Shown here one piece after another: positions 4,362-36,628 of a stretch of DNA of 41,632 nucleotides (the stretch's first letter is position 1; each line of letters opens with the position of its first letter). Origin of the DNA: Escherichia phage K1H. Position numbers and translations under genes: made by a program. The stretch lies in sequence record NC_027994.1. One strand, given 5' to 3'. The notes below the pieces were generated by a model, which saw only the letters and a list, made by a program, of their open reading frames with translations, had not been told where the DNA came from and made no database searches.

Positions 4362-4463
4362 TCAAAGTTCACCATTCCCGCTATCTGCGTCCTCGACCCC
4401 GCTAACAGCCCACACAAACAATCCTAAATTAACCAGTAACACAAATGAAATTGCTACCATCAT
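4362..4463 (-). CDS. Small hydrophobic peptide (33 aa, MMVAISFVLLVNLGLFVWAVSGVEDADSGNGEL)
   Basis: Internal ATG of track ORF 4362..4553; GGAGG Shine-Dalgarno 4-5 nt upstream; own promoter (TTGCAG-17-TACTAT) and terminator; single predicted TM helix. Confidence 0.4.
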   Translation of the reverse strand: MMVAISFVLLVNLGLFVWAVSGVEDADSGNGEL

Positions 4464-4489
4464 AACCACCTCCACTATACGTTTACTTA

Positions 4490-4518
4490 ATAGTACCCTA
4501 TTATGTTGGTGTCTGCAA
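4490..4518 (-). promoter_or_regulatory. Sigma70-like promoter, class 1 (TTGCAG-N17-TACTAT) with embedded dyad TAATAG-N4-CTATTA
   Basis: -35 at about 4513-4518 and -10 at about 4490-4495 (minus strand); spacer nearly identical to three other class-1 promoters. Confidence 0.5.
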
Positions 4519-4559
4519 ACTATTTGTTTACGTATTCCAGTTATTCCACTCAATTGTAA

Positions 4560-8831: not shown

Positions 8832-9244
8832 TGGGCTACTTTGAGGACTTAACAAAAGCGTTCGATGTTCCGCTGGTAGCCTTCGGAACCGCCAACGGCA
8901 TCAAGGTCGCGCTTGAAAACATCGACGCGCCGACGTCAACCGATACGCCATATCTGGCAAGTTACATGTTACTTGCGGATACGGAACAGGCGGATTTGTT
9001 CTTCACGGAACAACGCGCCGGTGTTTATCAGGTAGACATTAACTACGCATCGGTGAAAGGTAGCGCGCCAATCAATAAAATGGCAGACTTACTTAACACG
9101 GCGTTTAAAGCAGGTAAGTCATTTTCACGTAACGACATCTGCGCCGAGGTTCAATCGGTTAGCCTGGGGCCGCTGATTGTAGAAAACGGATGGGCCAAAC
9201 GACCATTGTCAATTAACTTTATTGCATTCACCAAGAGGCTGTGA
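8828..9244 (+). CDS. Tail terminator-like protein (putative)
   Basis: 138 aa, position immediately upstream of major tail protein. Confidence 0.45.
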   Translation: MMGYFEDLTKAFDVPLVAFGTANGIKVALENIDAPTSTDTPYLASYMLLADTEQADLFFTEQRAGVYQVDINYASVKGSAPINKMADLLNTAFKAGKSFSRNDICAEVQSVSLGPLIVENGWAKRPLSINFIAFTKRL

Positions 9245-9246
9245 AT

Positions 9247-10413
9247 ATGGCTACAACTCCTTTTAAGGGCGCGAATACCGCGCAATTCTATGTGGCGGAA
9301 GTCACCCCGGGCGTAACACCGACTAACCCGGTCTGGTCACCGTTGCGTAACACTGGCGGTGTTCCTGCTATCACCCGCGACACGCTGACCTCCAACGAAC
9401 TGGACGGCAGCCGTGAAACTACATCCATCCGCACCGGTAACAAACAGGTTAGCGGTGAATACGCGATCGAGCTTAGCTCGAAAAGCCAGGATGACTGGCT
9501 GGCTGGTGCTTTAGGCTCTACGTGGCAATCCGGTGTTTCCCTGTCCAGTCTGTCGATTACCGTCGCACCCGCGGGCAAGACGTTCACACGCGCTACCGGC
9601 AGTTTTATCACTGACGGAGTTGGGGTAGGCGACCTGATTGCATTTACCGATTTAACAGGCGATAACGCAAAACCATTTATTGTTACTGCAGTAACGGCTA
9701 CGGTTGTTACCGGTGCGGGCATCCAACACACCCTGACCACCGAGACAAAAACTAGTAAGGCTAAAACCGGCGACACGCTGGAAACCGGTAACACGTGTAA
9801 GACGTTCTCTATCCTTACCTGGTACAAAGGCCAGTGCGGCGGTACTGACGCGTACACGTTAACCAAAGGCGTGGAAGTTTCTGGTTTTACCATCGAACAG
9901 GCTGTTAACGCGATGGTAACTGGCAGCTTCCCATTCATCGGTCGCAGTCAGGAGATTCTCACTACGCCGCCGACCGGTTCCAACTTCTCATCTGTTACTT
10001 TTGGTGATGAGCCGTTCTCTTCGGTTGACGTTTCCGTGTTCGATGGCTCTACGCCGTTGCGTTGTGATAGCCTTACTATCACCAACGACAACAGCGCGTC
10101 CGCACAGTTCGAACTCGGCAACACTAACGTAGCGTTTGTGGAGCGTAGCCGAGCAGCTAACACCTTCTCCATCTCCGGTAAGCTGTACGACATGGCGATG
10201 ATTCAGAAGTTTATCAACGAGCAGCAGGTGGAGATTAACTCTATTCTGGCTGGGGTAAACGGGGCTATGTCTTTCAGTTTGAAACGTGCAGAACTTACGG
10301 CGGTTACACCTGAGATTGGAGGACCTGAGTCAATCACTCAGTCTATTGAAGGCCAGGCTACTGGCAACCAGTACCAGTCGTCTATTGTTATTCAGCGTAT
10401 CACATACGCATAA
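9247..10413 (+). CDS. Major tail protein
   Basis: 389 aa from ATG 9247 (AGAGG SD); Thr/Ser/Gly-rich; followed by strong terminator. Confidence 0.65.
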   Translation: MATTPFKGANTAQFYVAEVTPGVTPTNPVWSPLRNTGGVPAITRDTLTSNELDGSRETTSIRTGNKQVSGEYAIELSSKSQDDWLAGALGSTWQSGVSLSSLSITVAPAGKTFTRATGSFITDGVGVGDLIAFTDLTGDNAKPFIVTAVTATVVTGAGIQHTLTTETKTSKAKTGDTLETGNTCKTFSILTWYKGQCGGTDAYTLTKGVEVSGFTIEQAVNAMVTGSFPFIGRSQEILTTPPTGSNFSSVTFGDEPFSSVDVSVFDGSTPLRCDSLTITNDNSASAQFELGNTNVAFVERSRAANTFSISGKLYDMAMIQKFINEQQVEINSILAGVNGAMSFSLKRAELTAVTPEIGGPESITQSIEGQATGNQYQSSIVIQRITYA

Positions 10414-10417
10414 AACT

Positions 10418-10441
10418 AAGGCCCCGTTTGGGGCCTTTTTC
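10418..10441. terminator. Bidirectional intrinsic terminator
   Basis: ACTAAGGCCCC-GTTT-GGGGCCTTTTT between convergent genes; same hairpin with loop inverted at 23140-23163. Confidence 0.65.
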
Positions 10442-10996
10442 TTACAAACCTAATCTTAAAGCAATGCCTATAGCGTTCGATTTAACGTAACCCGGTATGA
10501 TGTAGGTGTCATAATCTTTTACACCATCAATATCGTACAGGTAACCGCGGCTGTCCCCTTCAAACGTATGGCCGTCTCTGTGCAAGCGGACGATTCTCAC
10601 ATCATGCCCCGCGGCAACGATAGGGGCTACTTCGCTGGCGAACCCGCCATCAGACACCACAAAAACTTCGTCGCCGTCGGGCAAGTTTCCGGCAAGATAC
10701 TTACCGAAATAATCATCACCGAATACCGGTTTAATGAATTGCTCGGAAATGGCAATCATGAACTGACGCCGAGACAACCCGTTAAGGAAACCCTCTGGCT
10801 TTTCTTTCCGCGCCCGGTCGTCGTAGCCGTCGAGAAACTCGCGGTAAGCATCCCGGCCTAACGCAGCCATAGCAATATTGAACATCGGATTCTTGAAACT
10901 GGCGACACCCTTCGCAAAGCCCATTTCTACCAGCGCCCTAGCAAGTGTGTCTTTCCCGCAGCCCGCAGGACCATTAAGAATAATTACCTTAGCCAT
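10442..10996 (-). CDS. P-loop nucleotide/nucleoside-monophosphate kinase-like protein
   Basis: 184 aa; Walker A GPAGCGKDT near N-terminus (GKDT variant as in phage dNMP kinases). Confidence 0.55.
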   Translation of the reverse strand: MAKVIILNGPAGCGKDTLARALVEMGFAKGVASFKNPMFNIAMAALGRDAYREFLDGYDDRARKEKPEGFLNGLSRRQFMIAISEQFIKPVFGDDYFGKYLAGNLPDGDEVFVVSDGGFASEVAPIVAAGHDVRIVRLHRDGHTFEGDSRGYLYDIDGVKDYDTYIIPGYVKSNAIGIALRLGL

Positions 10997-11481
10997 TATT
11001 TATCACTCCCATGTGGTTTTAAGTGTGTAGAGTTCCCGTTACAGTCGTATTCAGTAACTGCGTGAGTGGTTATGCCGAGTTCGCGGAAATGCTTTATTAC
11101 CGCTGGAGAGTCGTCGAATGCACACAAGATTCTCTCCGGCCCAATAGCACGCAACACCTCTTCTTTAATTACGATGTCTTTTCTGTTGTCGTGTTTGCTG
11201 CGCATGATTAACTGATAAAATTCGACGCGGTGGCGCTGCAACCACATTCTGGTTTCTTTTTCCGCGTCATCACTACGGCCTGTTAAGATAATAACGGCAT
11301 AGCGACGATTAAGGGCGTTACACAGTTCGATGTTATCTTTAATGGGTGCATCGTCTTTGCACGCCATGTTAAATGGTTTCCACGCCCAGGTTTCGCCGTA
11401 GTTATCTTTCGGCAGCAGGTGTAAACGATGGGTACCATCTGCCAATGTCCCGTCTAAATCGAAAATCACAATATCTTTCAC
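10996..11481 (-). CDS. HAD-superfamily phosphatase (nucleotidase or Pnk-phosphatase-like)
   Basis: 161 aa; N-terminal DxDGT motif (FDLDGTL). Confidence 0.6.
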   Translation of the reverse strand: MKDIVIFDLDGTLADGTHRLHLLPKDNYGETWAWKPFNMACKDDAPIKDNIELCNALNRRYAVIILTGRSDDAEKETRMWLQRHRVEFYQLIMRSKHDNRKDIVIKEEVLRAIGPERILCAFDDSPAVIKHFRELGITTHAVTEYDCNGNSTHLKPHGSDK

Positions 11482-12608
11482 CCAAGCATCTCCGGTGAAA
11501 TAGTTAAACGTGCGACCTCGCCATATTCGGCGCTATAAGTAATTACGTTTGCACTGCGGCCCGACATCCACCCACCGCGGGAGGCATATGCATCTTTAGC
11601 CGCGAGAGTGCGGTGTTGCTCAACAATCATGTTACGGCTTTCTACAATCTTTTGGTGGTGCAGGTGACCCACGTGGGCGTAGCTGTAAACACTCTCGCCG
11701 AACGCTTTGCGGAACTTGGCGATCATAACCGGTTCGATAGCGTCGAATCGTGCTTTATGCCCATGATGGAAGAACAGCGTCGTTTTGCCGTGTTGCACCA
11801 TCTTGTAAACATCCGGCGACGTATCGACGAACACACGCGGCTCATTGTCATACAGCGTACTAAACATCTCAGCTAACCAAATCATTCCGCTTTCGTCGTG
11901 GTTACCTTGCACGATAAGCAAGCGAACATTTTTATGTTTAACGAGAGCCATATCAATGACACGGCGGACCATACGAATCATGTAGCGTACAAGTTTCTGA
12001 TAGCGGGTGTCAGCGTCAAGAACATGACCACTGGCAGGTGTAACGGCGTCCAGACTATCGAAATGCGCAAGGTCGCCCAGCAGATTAATAACTCCTGTTC
12101 CGGTATCCGGTGCTTTCTGGAACGCTGCGTCGAACCAGCGGGAGAACAGGTCTTCCGCAATCTTCATGTCCCAGTCGTCGCCGCTCTCGTCAGCCCAGGC
12201 CAGCATACCGAGATGGAAATCAGACACAGTGTAAAGGTTGAGTAGCTTGTCGTCTCGTTTGGCGCGAACGGCTTTAACAGGTGCAACTGGTGTAATCTCC
12301 GACTTCATGCCTTCGATTACGGCTTTCATCAATTCAACCTGACGTTCGGCATCGGTGTCGGTCTTAACCCATTGCAACTTGGTGTTGCCAAACTCATCCA
12401 CCAGTGATGACGTTCCTTTAATCTTGTAGCCGTCCGGTACAAGGTAACTAACGTCACGCCCGTGGCCTACACCTTTCTTAGCCAGCTTCGCTTTACGGAT
12501 ACGAATAACGCGGTCGGAGATGCCGTATTTACGGGCGATGTCGATATTCTTCATACCGGCGTTCAATTCTTCCTGCAACTGTTCGTCGGTTATTTTCTTC
12601 TGGGCCAT
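11478..12608 (-). CDS. Calcineurin-like metallophosphoesterase with N-terminal HTH domain
   Basis: 376 aa; motifs DFH, GDLAHFD, GNHDE, HHGH, GHLHH; N-terminal approx 50 aa HTH-like; GAGGAAG SD. Confidence 0.65.
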   Translation of the reverse strand: MAQKKITDEQLQEELNAGMKNIDIARKYGISDRVIRIRKAKLAKKGVGHGRDVSYLVPDGYKIKGTSSLVDEFGNTKLQWVKTDTDAERQVELMKAVIEGMKSEITPVAPVKAVRAKRDDKLLNLYTVSDFHLGMLAWADESGDDWDMKIAEDLFSRWFDAAFQKAPDTGTGVINLLGDLAHFDSLDAVTPASGHVLDADTRYQKLVRYMIRMVRRVIDMALVKHKNVRLLIVQGNHDESGMIWLAEMFSTLYDNEPRVFVDTSPDVYKMVQHGKTTLFFHHGHKARFDAIEPVMIAKFRKAFGESVYSYAHVGHLHHQKIVESRNMIVEQHRTLAAKDAYASRGGWMSGRSANVITYSAEYGEVARLTISPEMLG

Positions 12609-12673: not shown

Positions 12674-13000
12674 CTATTTACTTTCCGCACCTATTGCCCA
12701 TCCGGTCATTACCATTTGCAGACGCGTGGCTGTCAGTAGGCTGTAGAATGCATCTCCGTTTTTCTCTACAGAACGTATTACCGTGTAGGTTACGGCTTGC
12801 GGGGGTAGGCCCGATTTACCAACCTCTACGGCGGCCTCACACTCGCGAACTGTAGAGTCCTTAAATGCCTTTACAATAGTAGGGTCGGCTTTCTCAAGCA
12901 CACCAGAAGTCATAAGAACAGATTCACTAAATACCTGTTCGCACGGGGCCCCAAAAGTAGCAAAAGACATAAGCCCCAGAGCTAATACTAATTTACGCAT
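12674..13000 (-). CDS. Small secreted/periplasmic protein (signal peptide)
   Basis: 108 aa; N-terminal MRKLVLALGLMSFATFGAP signal sequence; GAGGGA SD; class-1 promoter directly upstream. Confidence 0.5.
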   Translation of the reverse strand: MRKLVLALGLMSFATFGAPCEQVFSESVLMTSGVLEKADPTIVKAFKDSTVRECEAAVEVGKSGLPPQAVTYTVIRSVEKNGDAFYSLLTATRLQMVMTGWAIGAESK

Positions 13001-13028
13001 AATTGTTCCCTCAGTAAGTTACAGGTGA

Positions 13029-13057
13029 ATAGTACCCTATTATATTGGGGTGTGCAA
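13029..13057 (-). promoter_or_regulatory. Sigma70-like promoter, class 1 (TTGCAC-N17-TACTAT) with dyad GAATAG-TACC-CTATTA
   Basis: -35 at 13052-13057, -10 at 13029-13034 on minus strand; 34-bp segment nearly identical to 35234-35268. Confidence 0.55.
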
Positions 13058-13164
13058 GTAGTGTGCTAGAATAAGTTTGCGCCTAGTGTCGCACACGAAA
13101 AGCGGGTGGTTCCCGTCTGGCGCATTAACCTTAACCCGTAACCTCTTAACCAAAGGATTAAAGA

Positions 13165-13581
13165 ATGAAACTTTCTGATTTTTATTTTGCTGACCGCCAC
13201 GCTGCTGGTACTAAAATGCCTATCCTTCTGCCGAGCGGTAAAGACTCCGGCGAATGGTTGCAGGTCATAGGCCCTGATTGTGATGCAGGTGTTCGTGCAG
13301 GCCGCGCCTACACAACGGCAATTAGACGCCTTACGGAAGAACTCGCGCCATTAGATAAAGAGTGTGAGGCGCTGAATAACTGGGCGCGCTATAACGACGA
13401 GAAGGGCTGGCGGGTGATGGACCTGAACAAGCAGCTTGCCGTGGAAATCGTCACCGGTTGGTCATTCGATGAGCCGTTCAGCAAAGAGGCGCTGGCTAAC
13501 CTGTTCGACCAGTACAGCGGACTGGCAGAAGCTGTAGTTAAGCACCACACCGATAGCCGCGAGAAACTCTCGGAAAAGTAA
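13165..13581 (+). CDS. Tail assembly chaperone (lambda gpG-like by position)
   Basis: 138-aa acidic protein upstream of tape measure gene. Confidence 0.5.
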   Translation: MKLSDFYFADRHAAGTKMPILLPSGKDSGEWLQVIGPDCDAGVRAGRAYTTAIRRLTEELAPLDKECEALNNWARYNDEKGWRVMDLNKQLAVEIVTGWSFDEPFSKEALANLFDQYSGLAEAVVKHHTDSREKLSEK

Positions 13582-23549: not shown

Positions 23550-24979
23550 TTCTTACCTCGTCTCTTCATGTAATTAAGCAACTCTTCCTGTACAGATTTC
23601 TTCTCGTCGGTTCGCGCGGCAACAACTTCGTCCAGCGTGTCTTTAGCAACGATGTGGTACAGGAACACCGGCCTCTCGTGTCCTGCCTGTTTCTGGCGGA
23701 CCGGGCCTATTCGCTCGACAACCTGCAAATAGTGTTCAAGATTCCAGCCTTGCGAGATGAACGCCAGATGGTGTCCGCCGTCCTGTAAATTCAAACCATG
23801 ACCGGCTGACGCAGGGTGGACGCACAAAATCTCGATTTCGCCGCGGTTCCATGCTTCCATCTGCTTATTACCCTTAGCACCTTTCGCGAATGCCTGCGCC
23901 TGCGGGAAACGTTTCAGGATACGCTCCAGTTCGTGCTTGAACTGATAGGCTACCAGTAGCGGAGCACCCTGTAACTCCTCAACAATTGACTCCAGCGCAT
24001 CCAGTTTCGTGTCGTGCACTTTCTCCCAGTCTTTGGTTGCTTCTCCGTCTGGCCCTGATACATACACAGCACCAGAAGCAATCTGCAAACACTTTGACGT
24101 CTTTGCCGCGGCGTTAGCCGCTTCAACTTCTCCGCTTTCCAGTTCCGCGAATAACTTTTCCTCCATATCGATGTACGCCTGACGCGCCTTCTTCGGCAGG
24201 TCGATTTCAACCGGTACAATAATCGGCGCTTCGCAACCAAACCACTCGGCGGCGTCAATCGTGAGACTAATGTCTTTCATCTTCTGATGAATCTCATTAT
24301 CCGCACCCGGTCGTGCGTGATACTCCCGCGCCATCGCGGATTTCCCTTTCTGTACCGAGTTAAACCAGCGGTCTGTGAATGCCGTGTACGAAGAACCAAG
24401 GCAACCAAGGCGCTCGCCAGCGTCGATAAACCAGTTCTGCCCCCACAAGTCCTTGAGGCCGTTCGGCGACGGTGTGCCTGTCAGGTTAATGAAACGCTTA
24501 ACCTTTCCGAACGCCACTTTGCTTAGCGCCTTAGCCCGTTTGCTTCCTCCAGAACGGCTACGGAAAGATTTCAGCTTCGTGCTCTCATCAGCAACGATAA
24601 CCGTAAAAGGCCAGTCGTCTTTGCCGTAGTAGTCAATCAGCCACTCGATAACTTCGTAGTTTGTGCACACCACGTTAGCATCTGACTCCAGCGCCGCGAT
24701 ACGGCGCTTCTCTGAACCGGTTGCGTCTACGACACTCAGACAGGGGAAGTTCCAACGTGCCTGTTCCGCGGGCCACGTACCTGACGCAACACGTAAAGGA
24801 GCCAGAATTAACACTCGGTCGTCGTCATTAAGTTGCCCATTACGGAACAGCCGATTGAGAACCCACAACGTTGACCCCGACTTACCGCTGCCCATGCTCG
24901 CCCAGATATTGCAGCGATGGTGCCGCAGCATGAACGAAGTCATGAGCTTCTGGTATTCGCGCCTTTGAAACTTACTCAT
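23546..24979 (-). CDS. SNF2/DEAD-like superfamily II helicase
   Basis: 477 aa; Walker A-like SMGSGKS, DExx box VADEST, C-terminal helicase motifs. Confidence 0.75.
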   Translation of the reverse strand: MSKFQRREYQKLMTSFMLRHHRCNIWASMGSGKSGSTLWVLNRLFRNGQLNDDDRVLILAPLRVASGTWPAEQARWNFPCLSVVDATGSEKRRIAALESDANVVCTNYEVIEWLIDYYGKDDWPFTVIVADESTKLKSFRSRSGGSKRAKALSKVAFGKVKRFINLTGTPSPNGLKDLWGQNWFIDAGERLGCLGSSYTAFTDRWFNSVQKGKSAMAREYHARPGADNEIHQKMKDISLTIDAAEWFGCEAPIIVPVEIDLPKKARQAYIDMEEKLFAELESGEVEAANAAAKTSKCLQIASGAVYVSGPDGEATKDWEKVHDTKLDALESIVEELQGAPLLVAYQFKHELERILKRFPQAQAFAKGAKGNKQMEAWNRGEIEILCVHPASAGHGLNLQDGGHHLAFISQGWNLEHYLQVVERIGPVRQKQAGHERPVFLYHIVAKDTLDEVVAARTDEKKSVQEELLNYMKRRGKK

Positions 24980-25796
24980 TTACCGCCCCCATAAACGCCT
25001 TTATAAATTCGGCGGCTACTTGCGGGACGATGGCATTGCCGTAACCGCGCAATCGTCCCACTCTGGCGGGTATCCCATTAGCCAGCGGGAATGCGCCGGG
25101 TTCAACCGGCCGGAACTTTCCATCACGGCATCCGAGCCAGTCAGCATCTGACCAGAAGCCGTGGTGCGGGTTGGTTGACTCGCTTTCAATCCCTGCTCTG
25201 TTGAGTAGTCCAGCCTGTCGAATGTTCTGTCCCTCCCGTCCGTGCGAATCACTGTCTCTCCGCTCCCTCTGAAGTCGTTCGCTGTCGGTGTAGGCCAGTT
25301 CGTGCGCGCCAAAGAAGAGTCGTTCTCTTTTGTGCGGTGCGCCGACGCTACAAGCTGGGAGTACAGCAAACCCGACGGCGTAGTCTTCTCCTTCCAGGTG
25401 AGCTTGTAAATCGCACATCCACGATTTTGCAATTGCTGCCGCAACCTGCTCCCCAAAGATGACTGGAGGGCGGCACTCGCTGATGAGGTCGAGGAAGACC
25501 GGCGCGAGGTGTCTCGGGTCGAACTGTCCGAGTTGCTTTCCCGCCGCGCTAAACGGTTGGCAAGGCGGGCTTCCCGTCCAGAGAGGCGCATCTTCCGGAA
25601 CTCCCGCAAGTCTGAGCGCGAGAGGCCAGCCGCCGATACCCGCGAAAAAATGACACTGGGTGAACCCGTCAAGGTCTTCTGGCTTAACTTCGGTAATGCT
25701 TCTTTCATCTACAACTCCAAAAGGTATGTGACCCTGTTTTATCAACTCACGCAGCCACGCGGCTGCGCCTTTATCCCATTCATTGTAATAGTTCAT
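24972..25796 (-). CDS. DNA (cytosine-5)-methyltransferase (orphan)
   Basis: 274 aa; motif I FAGIGG and motif [13 protein letters not shown] (catalytic Pro-Cys); no adjacent restriction endonuclease. Confidence 0.7.
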
Positions 25797-31751: not shown

Positions 31752-31782
31752 CTTTTCTAAAATAATTAATATGGTACTATTC
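31752..31782 (+). promoter_or_regulatory. Weak plus-strand promoter (-10 TACTAT, poor -35) with dyad TAATAT-GGTA-CTATTC
   Basis: TACTAT at 31775-31780; overlaps the divergent class-2 promoter; AAGGAG SD before ATG 31812. Confidence 0.4.
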
Positions 31783-31811
31783 ACATATCAACTGACTAAG
31801 GAGTAATTGAC

Positions 31812-34905: not shown

Positions 34906-35236
34906 CAATGTATCGAAGGACCTTAATTCAGAATTACTTAGAAACATCATTCTTAAGTCTCGGGTACTTAAAGCCCCGCCCTAAAGCGGGGCGCTAAACA
35001 GTACTCTTGGTAACGTTAGTATCTAAGTTTCCTCAAAGTAACAGCAAGTAGCAAGAAAGCCTCCGTCTATTTAAATTTTACCCTCCTTCATAAGCTACTG
35101 ATAATTAAAAGTTTCTATAGTTGCCGTAAGCGAGGTAGAGAGTACTTCACTCCGCTGGGGTGGGCTAACGCCCACCCACTGCGTTGCGTACTCCTTTAAG
35201 AAACGAAAGAATCACAACGGCAACGTAACTATTCTC

Positions 35237-35267
35237 TTGCACACCCCAACATAATAGGATACTATTC
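35237..35267 (+). promoter_or_regulatory. Sigma70-like promoter, class 1 (TTGCAC-N17-TACTAT) with dyad TAATAG-GATA-CTATTC
   Basis: -35 35237-35242, -10 35260-35265; about 30 nt upstream of first early-right gene. Confidence 0.55.
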
Positions 35268-35299
35268 ACTTATCGGAACGAGACAGAGGAGTGAGGGTT

Positions 35300-36562: not shown

Positions 36563-36569
36563 AATTTAC

Positions 36570-36600
36570 TTGCACACTAAGATAGAATAGGCTACTATTC
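36570..36600 (+). promoter_or_regulatory. Sigma70-like promoter, class 1 (TTGCAC-N17-TACTAT) with dyad GAATAG-GCTA-CTATTC
   Basis: -35 36570-36575, -10 36593-36598; perfect 6-bp half-sites. Confidence 0.55.
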
Positions 36601-36628
36601 ATTTACACAAGCGAGAGGGGAGACAGAG

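Follow-up and report, generated by a model that had tools for sequence, protein, structure and literature searches.

The genome of Escherichia phage K1H (NC_027994.1; 41,632 nucleotides, the whole of which was analysed and is referred to here as the window) contains three adjacent open reading frames (ORFs) on the strand opposite to its tail genes, encoding a kinase, a phosphatase and a metallophosphoesterase (MPE) with an N-terminal helix-turn-helix (HTH):

10442-10996, minus strand: P-loop kinase (DNK), an ORF of 184 aa with the motif GPAGCGKDT
10996-11481, minus strand: HAD phosphatase, an ORF of 161 aa with a GTG start and the motif FDLDGTL
11478-12608, minus strand: HTH-metallophosphoesterase (MPE), an ORF of 376 aa

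The ORFs lie exactly where a preliminary description of this DNA had placed three enzymes running against the structural genes, and both motifs quoted there are present in the translations. They represent genes rather than chance ORFs, since each has strong family matches and the homologues number hundreds to thousands. The MPE and HAD genes meet in the sequence GTGA, where the GTG start of the latter overlaps the stop codon of the former, and the HAD and kinase genes meet in TAATG, where the kinase ATG overlaps the HAD stop codon; a Shine-Dalgarno-like sequence precedes both junction starts and the three genes are therefore translationally coupled. The 3.2 kb around this cassette aligns along its entire length with Escherichia phage G AB-2017 at 96% identity and is 89-99% identical to many K1G-like phages (genus Kagunavirus, subfamily Guernseyvirinae), and the window is a Kagunavirus genome. 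For this phage group the cassette is ordinary, being annotated in hundreds of public genomes, with its kinase characterised in a relative. The main outcome for the window is consequently a correct annotation, i.e., a very probable deoxynucleoside monophosphate (dNMP) kinase, a stand-alone phosphatase of the type found in polynucleotide kinase-phosphatase (Pnkp) and an HTH-MPE belonging to a common family.

By both sequence and fold the kinase belongs to the phage Dnk-type dNMP kinases (T4 gp1 / R1DNK family, PHROG 139). It shares 50% identity (E 2e-60) with R1DNK from Escherichia phage Rao1, the sequence of which was taken from the supplement of bioRxiv 10.1101/2024.12.20.629578, and G14, K15 and D16 of its P-loop (G9PAGCGK15D16T) are invariant in 45 homologues. 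R1DNK phosphorylates dAMP, dGMP and dCMP efficiently and dTMP too; K15 is catalytic, the K15A exchange abolishes the effect of the enzyme and deletion of dnk from Rao1 causes dATP to fall (Zeng et al., bioRxiv 10.1101/2024.12.20.629578). Searches of PDB sequences with the single kinase sequence and with a 7-sequence profile returned P-loop noise only and a fold search was therefore needed; this placed the kinase closest to T4 Dnk, although identity with T4 gp1 (PDB 1dek) is only 19%, the lengths differ (241 aa in T4 versus 184 aa) and HMMER gave no sequence-level match between the two. A Pnk-type 5'-OH polynucleotide kinase domain, which partners the phosphatase in the bifunctional Pnkp of T4, was not found. 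Our analysis thus very probably identifies an enzyme converting dNMPs to the diphosphates (dNDPs) rather than a polynucleotide kinase. The DNK clade was absent from the genomes of 185,579 bacterial and archaeal species, each represented by one genome, as would be expected of a gene restricted to virulent phages.

The HAD protein matches the family PF25109 (HAD_PNKP) with an E-value of 6.7e-20 and 72.1 bits (curated cut-off 27.6 bits), covering 140 of the 143 profile positions, and the only solved structures related to it by sequence are those of Capnocytophaga Pnkp1 (4xrp) and the phosphatase domain of T4 Pnkp (5uj0/1ltq). HAD motifs I-IV are present: among 75 distinct members D8, D10, G11, T12, R19, T67, G68, R69, D98, R100, D102, K106, D123 and D124 show little or no variation, and they align with the T4 Pnkp blocks DxDGT, SGR/TGR, D-x-R-K-D-x-V-x-K-E-E and DD. 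These positions presumably include the residues found essential by mutagenesis of T4 Pnkp, the roles of which were reportedly established by the Shuman laboratory. Judged by its sequence, the protein is a free-standing member of the T4-Pnkp-type 3'-phosphatase family. It resembles T4 Pnkp and Capnocytophaga Pnkp1 in PF25109, in chain sequence and in the catalytic blocks, but differs from T4 Pnkp in standing alone (161 aa), lacking a fused Pnk-type kinase and having a Dnk-type kinase as its neighbour. The preliminary description had offered either a dNMP-kinase/nucleotidase pair or a split Pnkp for these two genes; the dNMP kinase, as a relative of R1DNK, and the Pnkp affinity of the phosphatase were retained, whereas the Pnk-type kinase had to be abandoned. 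Orthology of the HAD protein with Dmp of phage T5, a 5'-deoxyribonucleotidase that acts as an anti-Kongming factor and which we take to be of HAD type, was considered and rejected. Both proteins have the DLDGT motif I, but they align over residues 4-51 only (48 residues around motif I, E 1e-4), and T5 Dmp matches neither PF25109 nor any other Pfam family. The phage encoding T5 Dmp also possesses a DNK, and T5 Dmp works on nucleotide pools.

The third protein, the MPE, falls into PHROG 704 (“DNA repair exonuclease”; 6.8e-167). It consists of a three-helix HTH at approximately residues 8-44, a conserved beta-hairpin plus helix at 61-104 and a binuclear metallophosphoesterase domain at approximately 119-376. 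Its N-terminal HTH is real, and the N-termini of many members match sigma-70 region 4, GerE, Fis and other HTH families. The complete set of binuclear metallophosphoesterase motifs (DxH, GD, GNH(D/E), H and GHxH) is intact, with D130, H132, G178, D179, N236, H237, H282 and H317 invariant and H315 nearly invariant in 41 diverse members. A fold search confirmed the calcineurin-like metallophosphoesterase fold. The best structural matches in Foldseek are the DNA nucleases PolD-DP1, SbcD and Mre11, with Rv0805 ranking about equal, and a search of PDB sequences with the MPE profile produced HTH matches and otherwise just sub-threshold Mre11/MPE matches. The fold thus resembles those of Mre11, SbcD and archaeal PolD DP1, but identity amounts to 9-18% and the elements by which these proteins usually bind their partners are replaced in the MPE by the N-terminal HTH. 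Neither a Rad50/SbcC nor a PolD DP2 partner was detected, either among those ORFs of the window that reach 130 aa or among the genes annotated in a near-identical genome. A role as the proofreading subunit of the phage polymerase was also considered and rejected, the polymerase of the near-identical genome being annotated with a DnaQ-like exonuclease region of its own; T1-like phages carry the MPE yet are not known to encode a polymerase.

The combination of an HTH with a metallophosphoesterase, noted in the preliminary description, is thus borne out by the HTH matches and the intact metal-binding motifs, but it is by no means an unusual architecture. The MPE was detected by tblastn in 2049 of 50,697 phage records (Escherichia, Klebsiella, Salmonella, Vibrio, Rhodobacter and others), its homologues form 4636 clusters at 50% identity in an exhaustive search and it is a persistent gene of the Drexlerviridae, present in 508 of 522 (PMC13164509). 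It ranks among the most widespread phage enzymes without an assayed member. Literature searches on the MPE in Drexlerviridae, on HTH-MPE in connection with host DNA degradation and on T1 gene 2.5 yielded nothing. The profile searches proposed in the preliminary description were only partly rewarding: the HAD protein exceeded the cut-off of PF25109, but the MPE remained under the gathering cut-offs of the Pfam Metallophos profiles (19 versus 21.5 and 21 versus 27) and NCBIfam gave nothing useful.

The distribution of the genes was examined in 80 IMG/VR loci retrieved with DNK (6-sequence alignment), 15 of which are Kagunavirus-like and 65 not. In 76 of the 80 (61 of the 65 non-Kagunavirus loci) DNK is preceded by a HAD gene on its own strand, and this genetic linkage of HAD and DNK is the strongest signal in our data. 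All three genes in the order MPE-HAD-DNK are found again in 11 of the 65 non-Kagunavirus loci, in gp56-gp57-gp58 of the Drexlerviridae-like phage Rao1 (45%, 50%, and 50% identity, respectively) and in an Edwardsiella phage of the Autographiviridae (52%, 48%, and 47%). The order and orientation of the three genes agree between Rao1 and the window, and K15 is present in both kinases, but the Rao1 cassette precedes the lysis genes whereas that of the window lies antisense within the tail module; DNK is the sole cassette member that was studied in Rao1. In the Drexlerviridae pan-genome PNK and dNMP kinase most often directly follow the “DNA repair exonuclease” (PMC13164509) and the arrangement has therefore already been described. 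In this slot the MPE is the anciently linked core gene, and HAD and DNK together form a tightly linked pair that has joined it in several phage lineages.

Two features of these loci deserve mention. In approximately 34 of the 80 loci the gap between HAD and DNK is 750-2200 bp (including many Drexlerviridae among L031-L075), possibly due to insertions of homing endonucleases like that in T1, where an HNH endonuclease gene is inserted between HAD and DNK (L007, 3987-5573). In loci of the Autographiviridae type (L012, 762-4037; L076, L077, and L084) an ATP-dependent DNA ligase (DNA_ligase_A_M + OB_2) directly follows the trio, and L012 has an exonuclease and endonuclease VII upstream of it; this ligase neighbour is part of a general DNA-metabolism module.

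Around the cassette the following features were recognised, the two tail genes being taken from the annotation of near-identical phages:

9241-10413, plus strand: tail tube gene
10418-10437, both strands: GC-rich hairpin AAGGCCCCGTTTGGGGCCTT, followed by a T-run on the plus strand and a weaker T-run on the minus strand
12674-13000, minus strand: protein with an N-terminal signal peptide, an ORF of 108 aa leading the leftward unit
13029-13057, minus strand: promoter-like element, TTGCAC (13057-13052), a 17-nt spacer and TACTAT (13034-13029), upstream of the secreted-protein gene
13165-13581, plus strand: tail assembly chaperone gene, with the tape measure gene further on

The leftward genes are thus flanked by the tail tube gene on the left and the tail chaperone and tape measure genes on the right, all on the plus strand, in agreement with the location given in the preliminary description. 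The promoter-like element belongs to a class of related 47-mers of the form CTTGCAC-N17-TACTAT, found by a repeat search at 13016-13062 (minus), 35232-35278 (plus), 36565-36611 (plus), and 4477-4523 (minus), with a partial copy near 31765-31790 (plus) and a conserved spacer (..AATAGG.). Runs of small early-type genes, beside the divergent control region, follow the copies at 35232 and 36565. Since the leftward unit has this class of element in common with those runs, its four genes are probably expressed early. A generic sigma-70 scan missed the element of the cassette and its class. The “class-1 promoter” previously said to drive the cassette through the secreted-protein gene is therefore a real, repeated element in the right position, which we infer to act as a promoter. 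The hairpin, which lies where the tail tube and kinase genes converge, is terminator-like on both strands, and its T-run on the plus strand implies that transcription of the downstream tail genes would have to continue across the antisense cassette or start anew; 13018-13046 (plus) contains a weak promoter-like site.

With a probability of about 0.5, we interpret the three genes as an early nucleotide-supply cassette, which leads from DNA via dNMPs to dNDPs and boosts the precursors for phage DNA synthesis. The HTH-MPE would bind DNA through its HTH and act as a Mn/Mg-dependent nuclease similar to Mre11, SbcD and DP1, releasing 5'-dNMPs, most plausibly from the host chromosome or from DNA ends. 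The Pnkp-type HAD, in view of its family membership, would strip 3'-phosphates from DNA ends or nucleotides, where they would otherwise block exonuclease or polymerase or trap nucleotides in a useless form. DNK would then convert dNMPs to dNDPs, from which the host Ndk would form the dNTPs required by the family-A DNA polymerase of the phage. The phage encodes its own DNA polymerase, a primase-helicase and a Cas4-like exonuclease but no ligase. Experimental support for the DNK step comes from the 50%-identical homologue R1DNK only; the roles given to the MPE and HAD proteins are inferred. The pan-genome study of the Drexlerviridae likewise suggests that PNK and dNMP kinase extend the replication module and enhance nucleotide supply (PMC13164509). 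Nucleotide pools had been among the possible roles listed in the preliminary description, in agreement with the assignment of DNK from its assayed relative, and the nearly invariable linkage of HAD and DNK calls for a biochemical explanation.

Several observations weigh against this interpretation. Among the MPE and HAD proteins of these families none has had its activity measured, there is no obvious way for a 3'-phosphatase to feed a 5'-dNMP kinase and the early timing is derived from promoter similarity only. Deletion of dnk from Rao1 had no apparent fitness cost (bioRxiv 10.1101/2024.12.20.629578), so that the benefit of the kinase may be conditional. Furthermore, each of the genes has been encountered without the others: the MPE occurs alone near lysis or terminase genes in Hanrivervirus, Dhillonvirus, a Vibrio phage and RcPacific, DNK occurs alone in Vibrio KF1 and in an rV5-like phage and T1 has the arrangement HAD-HNH-DNK with no MPE within the 10.5 kb retrieved. 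In Jerseyvirus the MPE occupies the corresponding antisense slot of the tail module but is followed by unrelated genes, which indicates that the slot belongs to the MPE and that HAD and DNK were added in Kagunavirus. The trio as a whole can therefore not be regarded as inserted, as was originally thought; this applies to the Kagunavirus-specific HAD and kinase, while the MPE holds the slot throughout the Guernseyvirinae. In Salmonella phage SF4 (Jerseyvirus; L008, 3758-6142) the slot contains Imm, the MPE, a 76-aa ORF and a 223-aa “putative DNA-binding protein”, the latter two standing where Kagunavirus has HAD and DNK.

It is thus possible, though we hold it only tentatively, that the three genes are merely adjacent, with the MPE as a core gene having its own role (e.g., in recombination, the processing of replication intermediates or packaging) and HAD-DNK as an independent accessory nucleotide module, both located at the end of early or middle operons. 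This stays plausible because each gene stands alone in some lineages; the persistence of the MPE in the Drexlerviridae, the composition of the T1 and Jerseyvirus loci and the fact that the MPE adjoins only 11 of the 65 non-Kagunavirus DNK loci all point in this direction. Against mere adjacency, however, three unrelated phage lineages share precisely the order MPE-HAD-DNK, their junctions being overlapping or very short, and this recurrence exceeds what the position of the modules alone would predict. The membership of the HAD protein in the Pnkp phosphatase family, with its catalytic residues, could also be taken to indicate distributed end healing, in which HAD removes 3'-phosphates, the kinase phosphorylates 5'-OH ends, the MPE trims ends or opens cyclic phosphates and a ligase then reseals damaged tRNA or nicked DNA to counter anticodon nucleases or host DNases. 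A bacterial Pnkp of the Clostridium thermocellum type joins kinase, MPE-type phosphatase and ligase domains, and a DNA ligase directly follows the trio in the Autographiviridae-type loci mentioned above (one from GenBank and three from IMG/VR). Such end healing is nevertheless quite improbable, given that the kinase is of the Dnk type and that Kagunavirus lacks a ligase.

A role in countering host defence, as contemplated in the preliminary description, receives even less credit from the data. The MPE would then be a cyclic (oligo)nucleotide phosphodiesterase, for which the similar structural ranking of the cyclic-nucleotide phosphodiesterase Rv0805 and the nucleases could be cited, and HAD would be a Dmp-like dNMP phosphatase that starves Kongming-type signalling. 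T5 Dmp, a phosphatase with the DLDGT motif, indeed removes dAMP and thereby blocks Kongming, genes for Dmp and DNK occur together and dNMPs from host DNA breakdown serve as immune signals in two recent systems. R1DNK itself is the trigger of the Kongming defence, which turns dAMP into the signal dITP (bioRxiv 10.1101/2024.12.20.629578). Rao1, however, is still restricted by Kongming despite its full trio and is rescued by T5 Dmp in trans, its own HAD giving no such protection; T5 Dmp falls outside PF25109 and has only the motif-I region in common with the HAD protein; the persistence of the MPE and the conservation of its HTH speak for a housekeeping role directed at DNA; and none of the four proteins of the leftward unit matched a PADLOC model at E <= 0.01. 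We therefore consider an anti-defence function very improbable. The carriage of DNK rather predicts that Kagunavirus is sensitive to Kongming-type defence, which is relevant to the choice of therapeutic phages. Returning to nucleotide supply, a more far-reaching version of it, which we regard as speculative and unlikely, is that the HTH-MPE, a persistent gene of T1-like, Dhillonvirus and Guernseyvirinae phages, breaks down the host chromosome of these phages and that MPE-HAD-DNK forms a self-contained pipeline from chromosome to dNDP. Nucleotide-sensing defences such as Kongming (dAMP to dITP) and PUA-Cal-HAD (m6-dAMP) would then be responding to its dNMP output, and HAD would edit this pool.

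The gene leading the leftward unit belongs to PHROG 14165, a family with no assigned function, and its 108-aa secreted product had no match in Pfam, NCBIfam or PADLOC. It was found in 4 of the 15 Kagunavirus-like IMG/VR loci, and the leading position of the unit varies: relatives of the K1G type have a superinfection immunity (Imm) gene and a small ORF there (L001, 12430-12748). Elsewhere in the window, two long overlapping ORFs on the same strand (24972-25796 and 25016-25708, both minus) occur in the cytosine-C5 methyltransferase region, and the annotation of a relative contains both, as a methyltransferase and an “Mte8-like” protein. Just downstream of the promoter copy at 4523 (minus), antisense within the head module, a small leftward ORF (approximately 4362-4463, minus) with a strong ribosome-binding site (GGAGGTGG) encodes a hydrophobic peptide of approximately 33 aa (MMVAISFVLLVNLGLFVWAV...).

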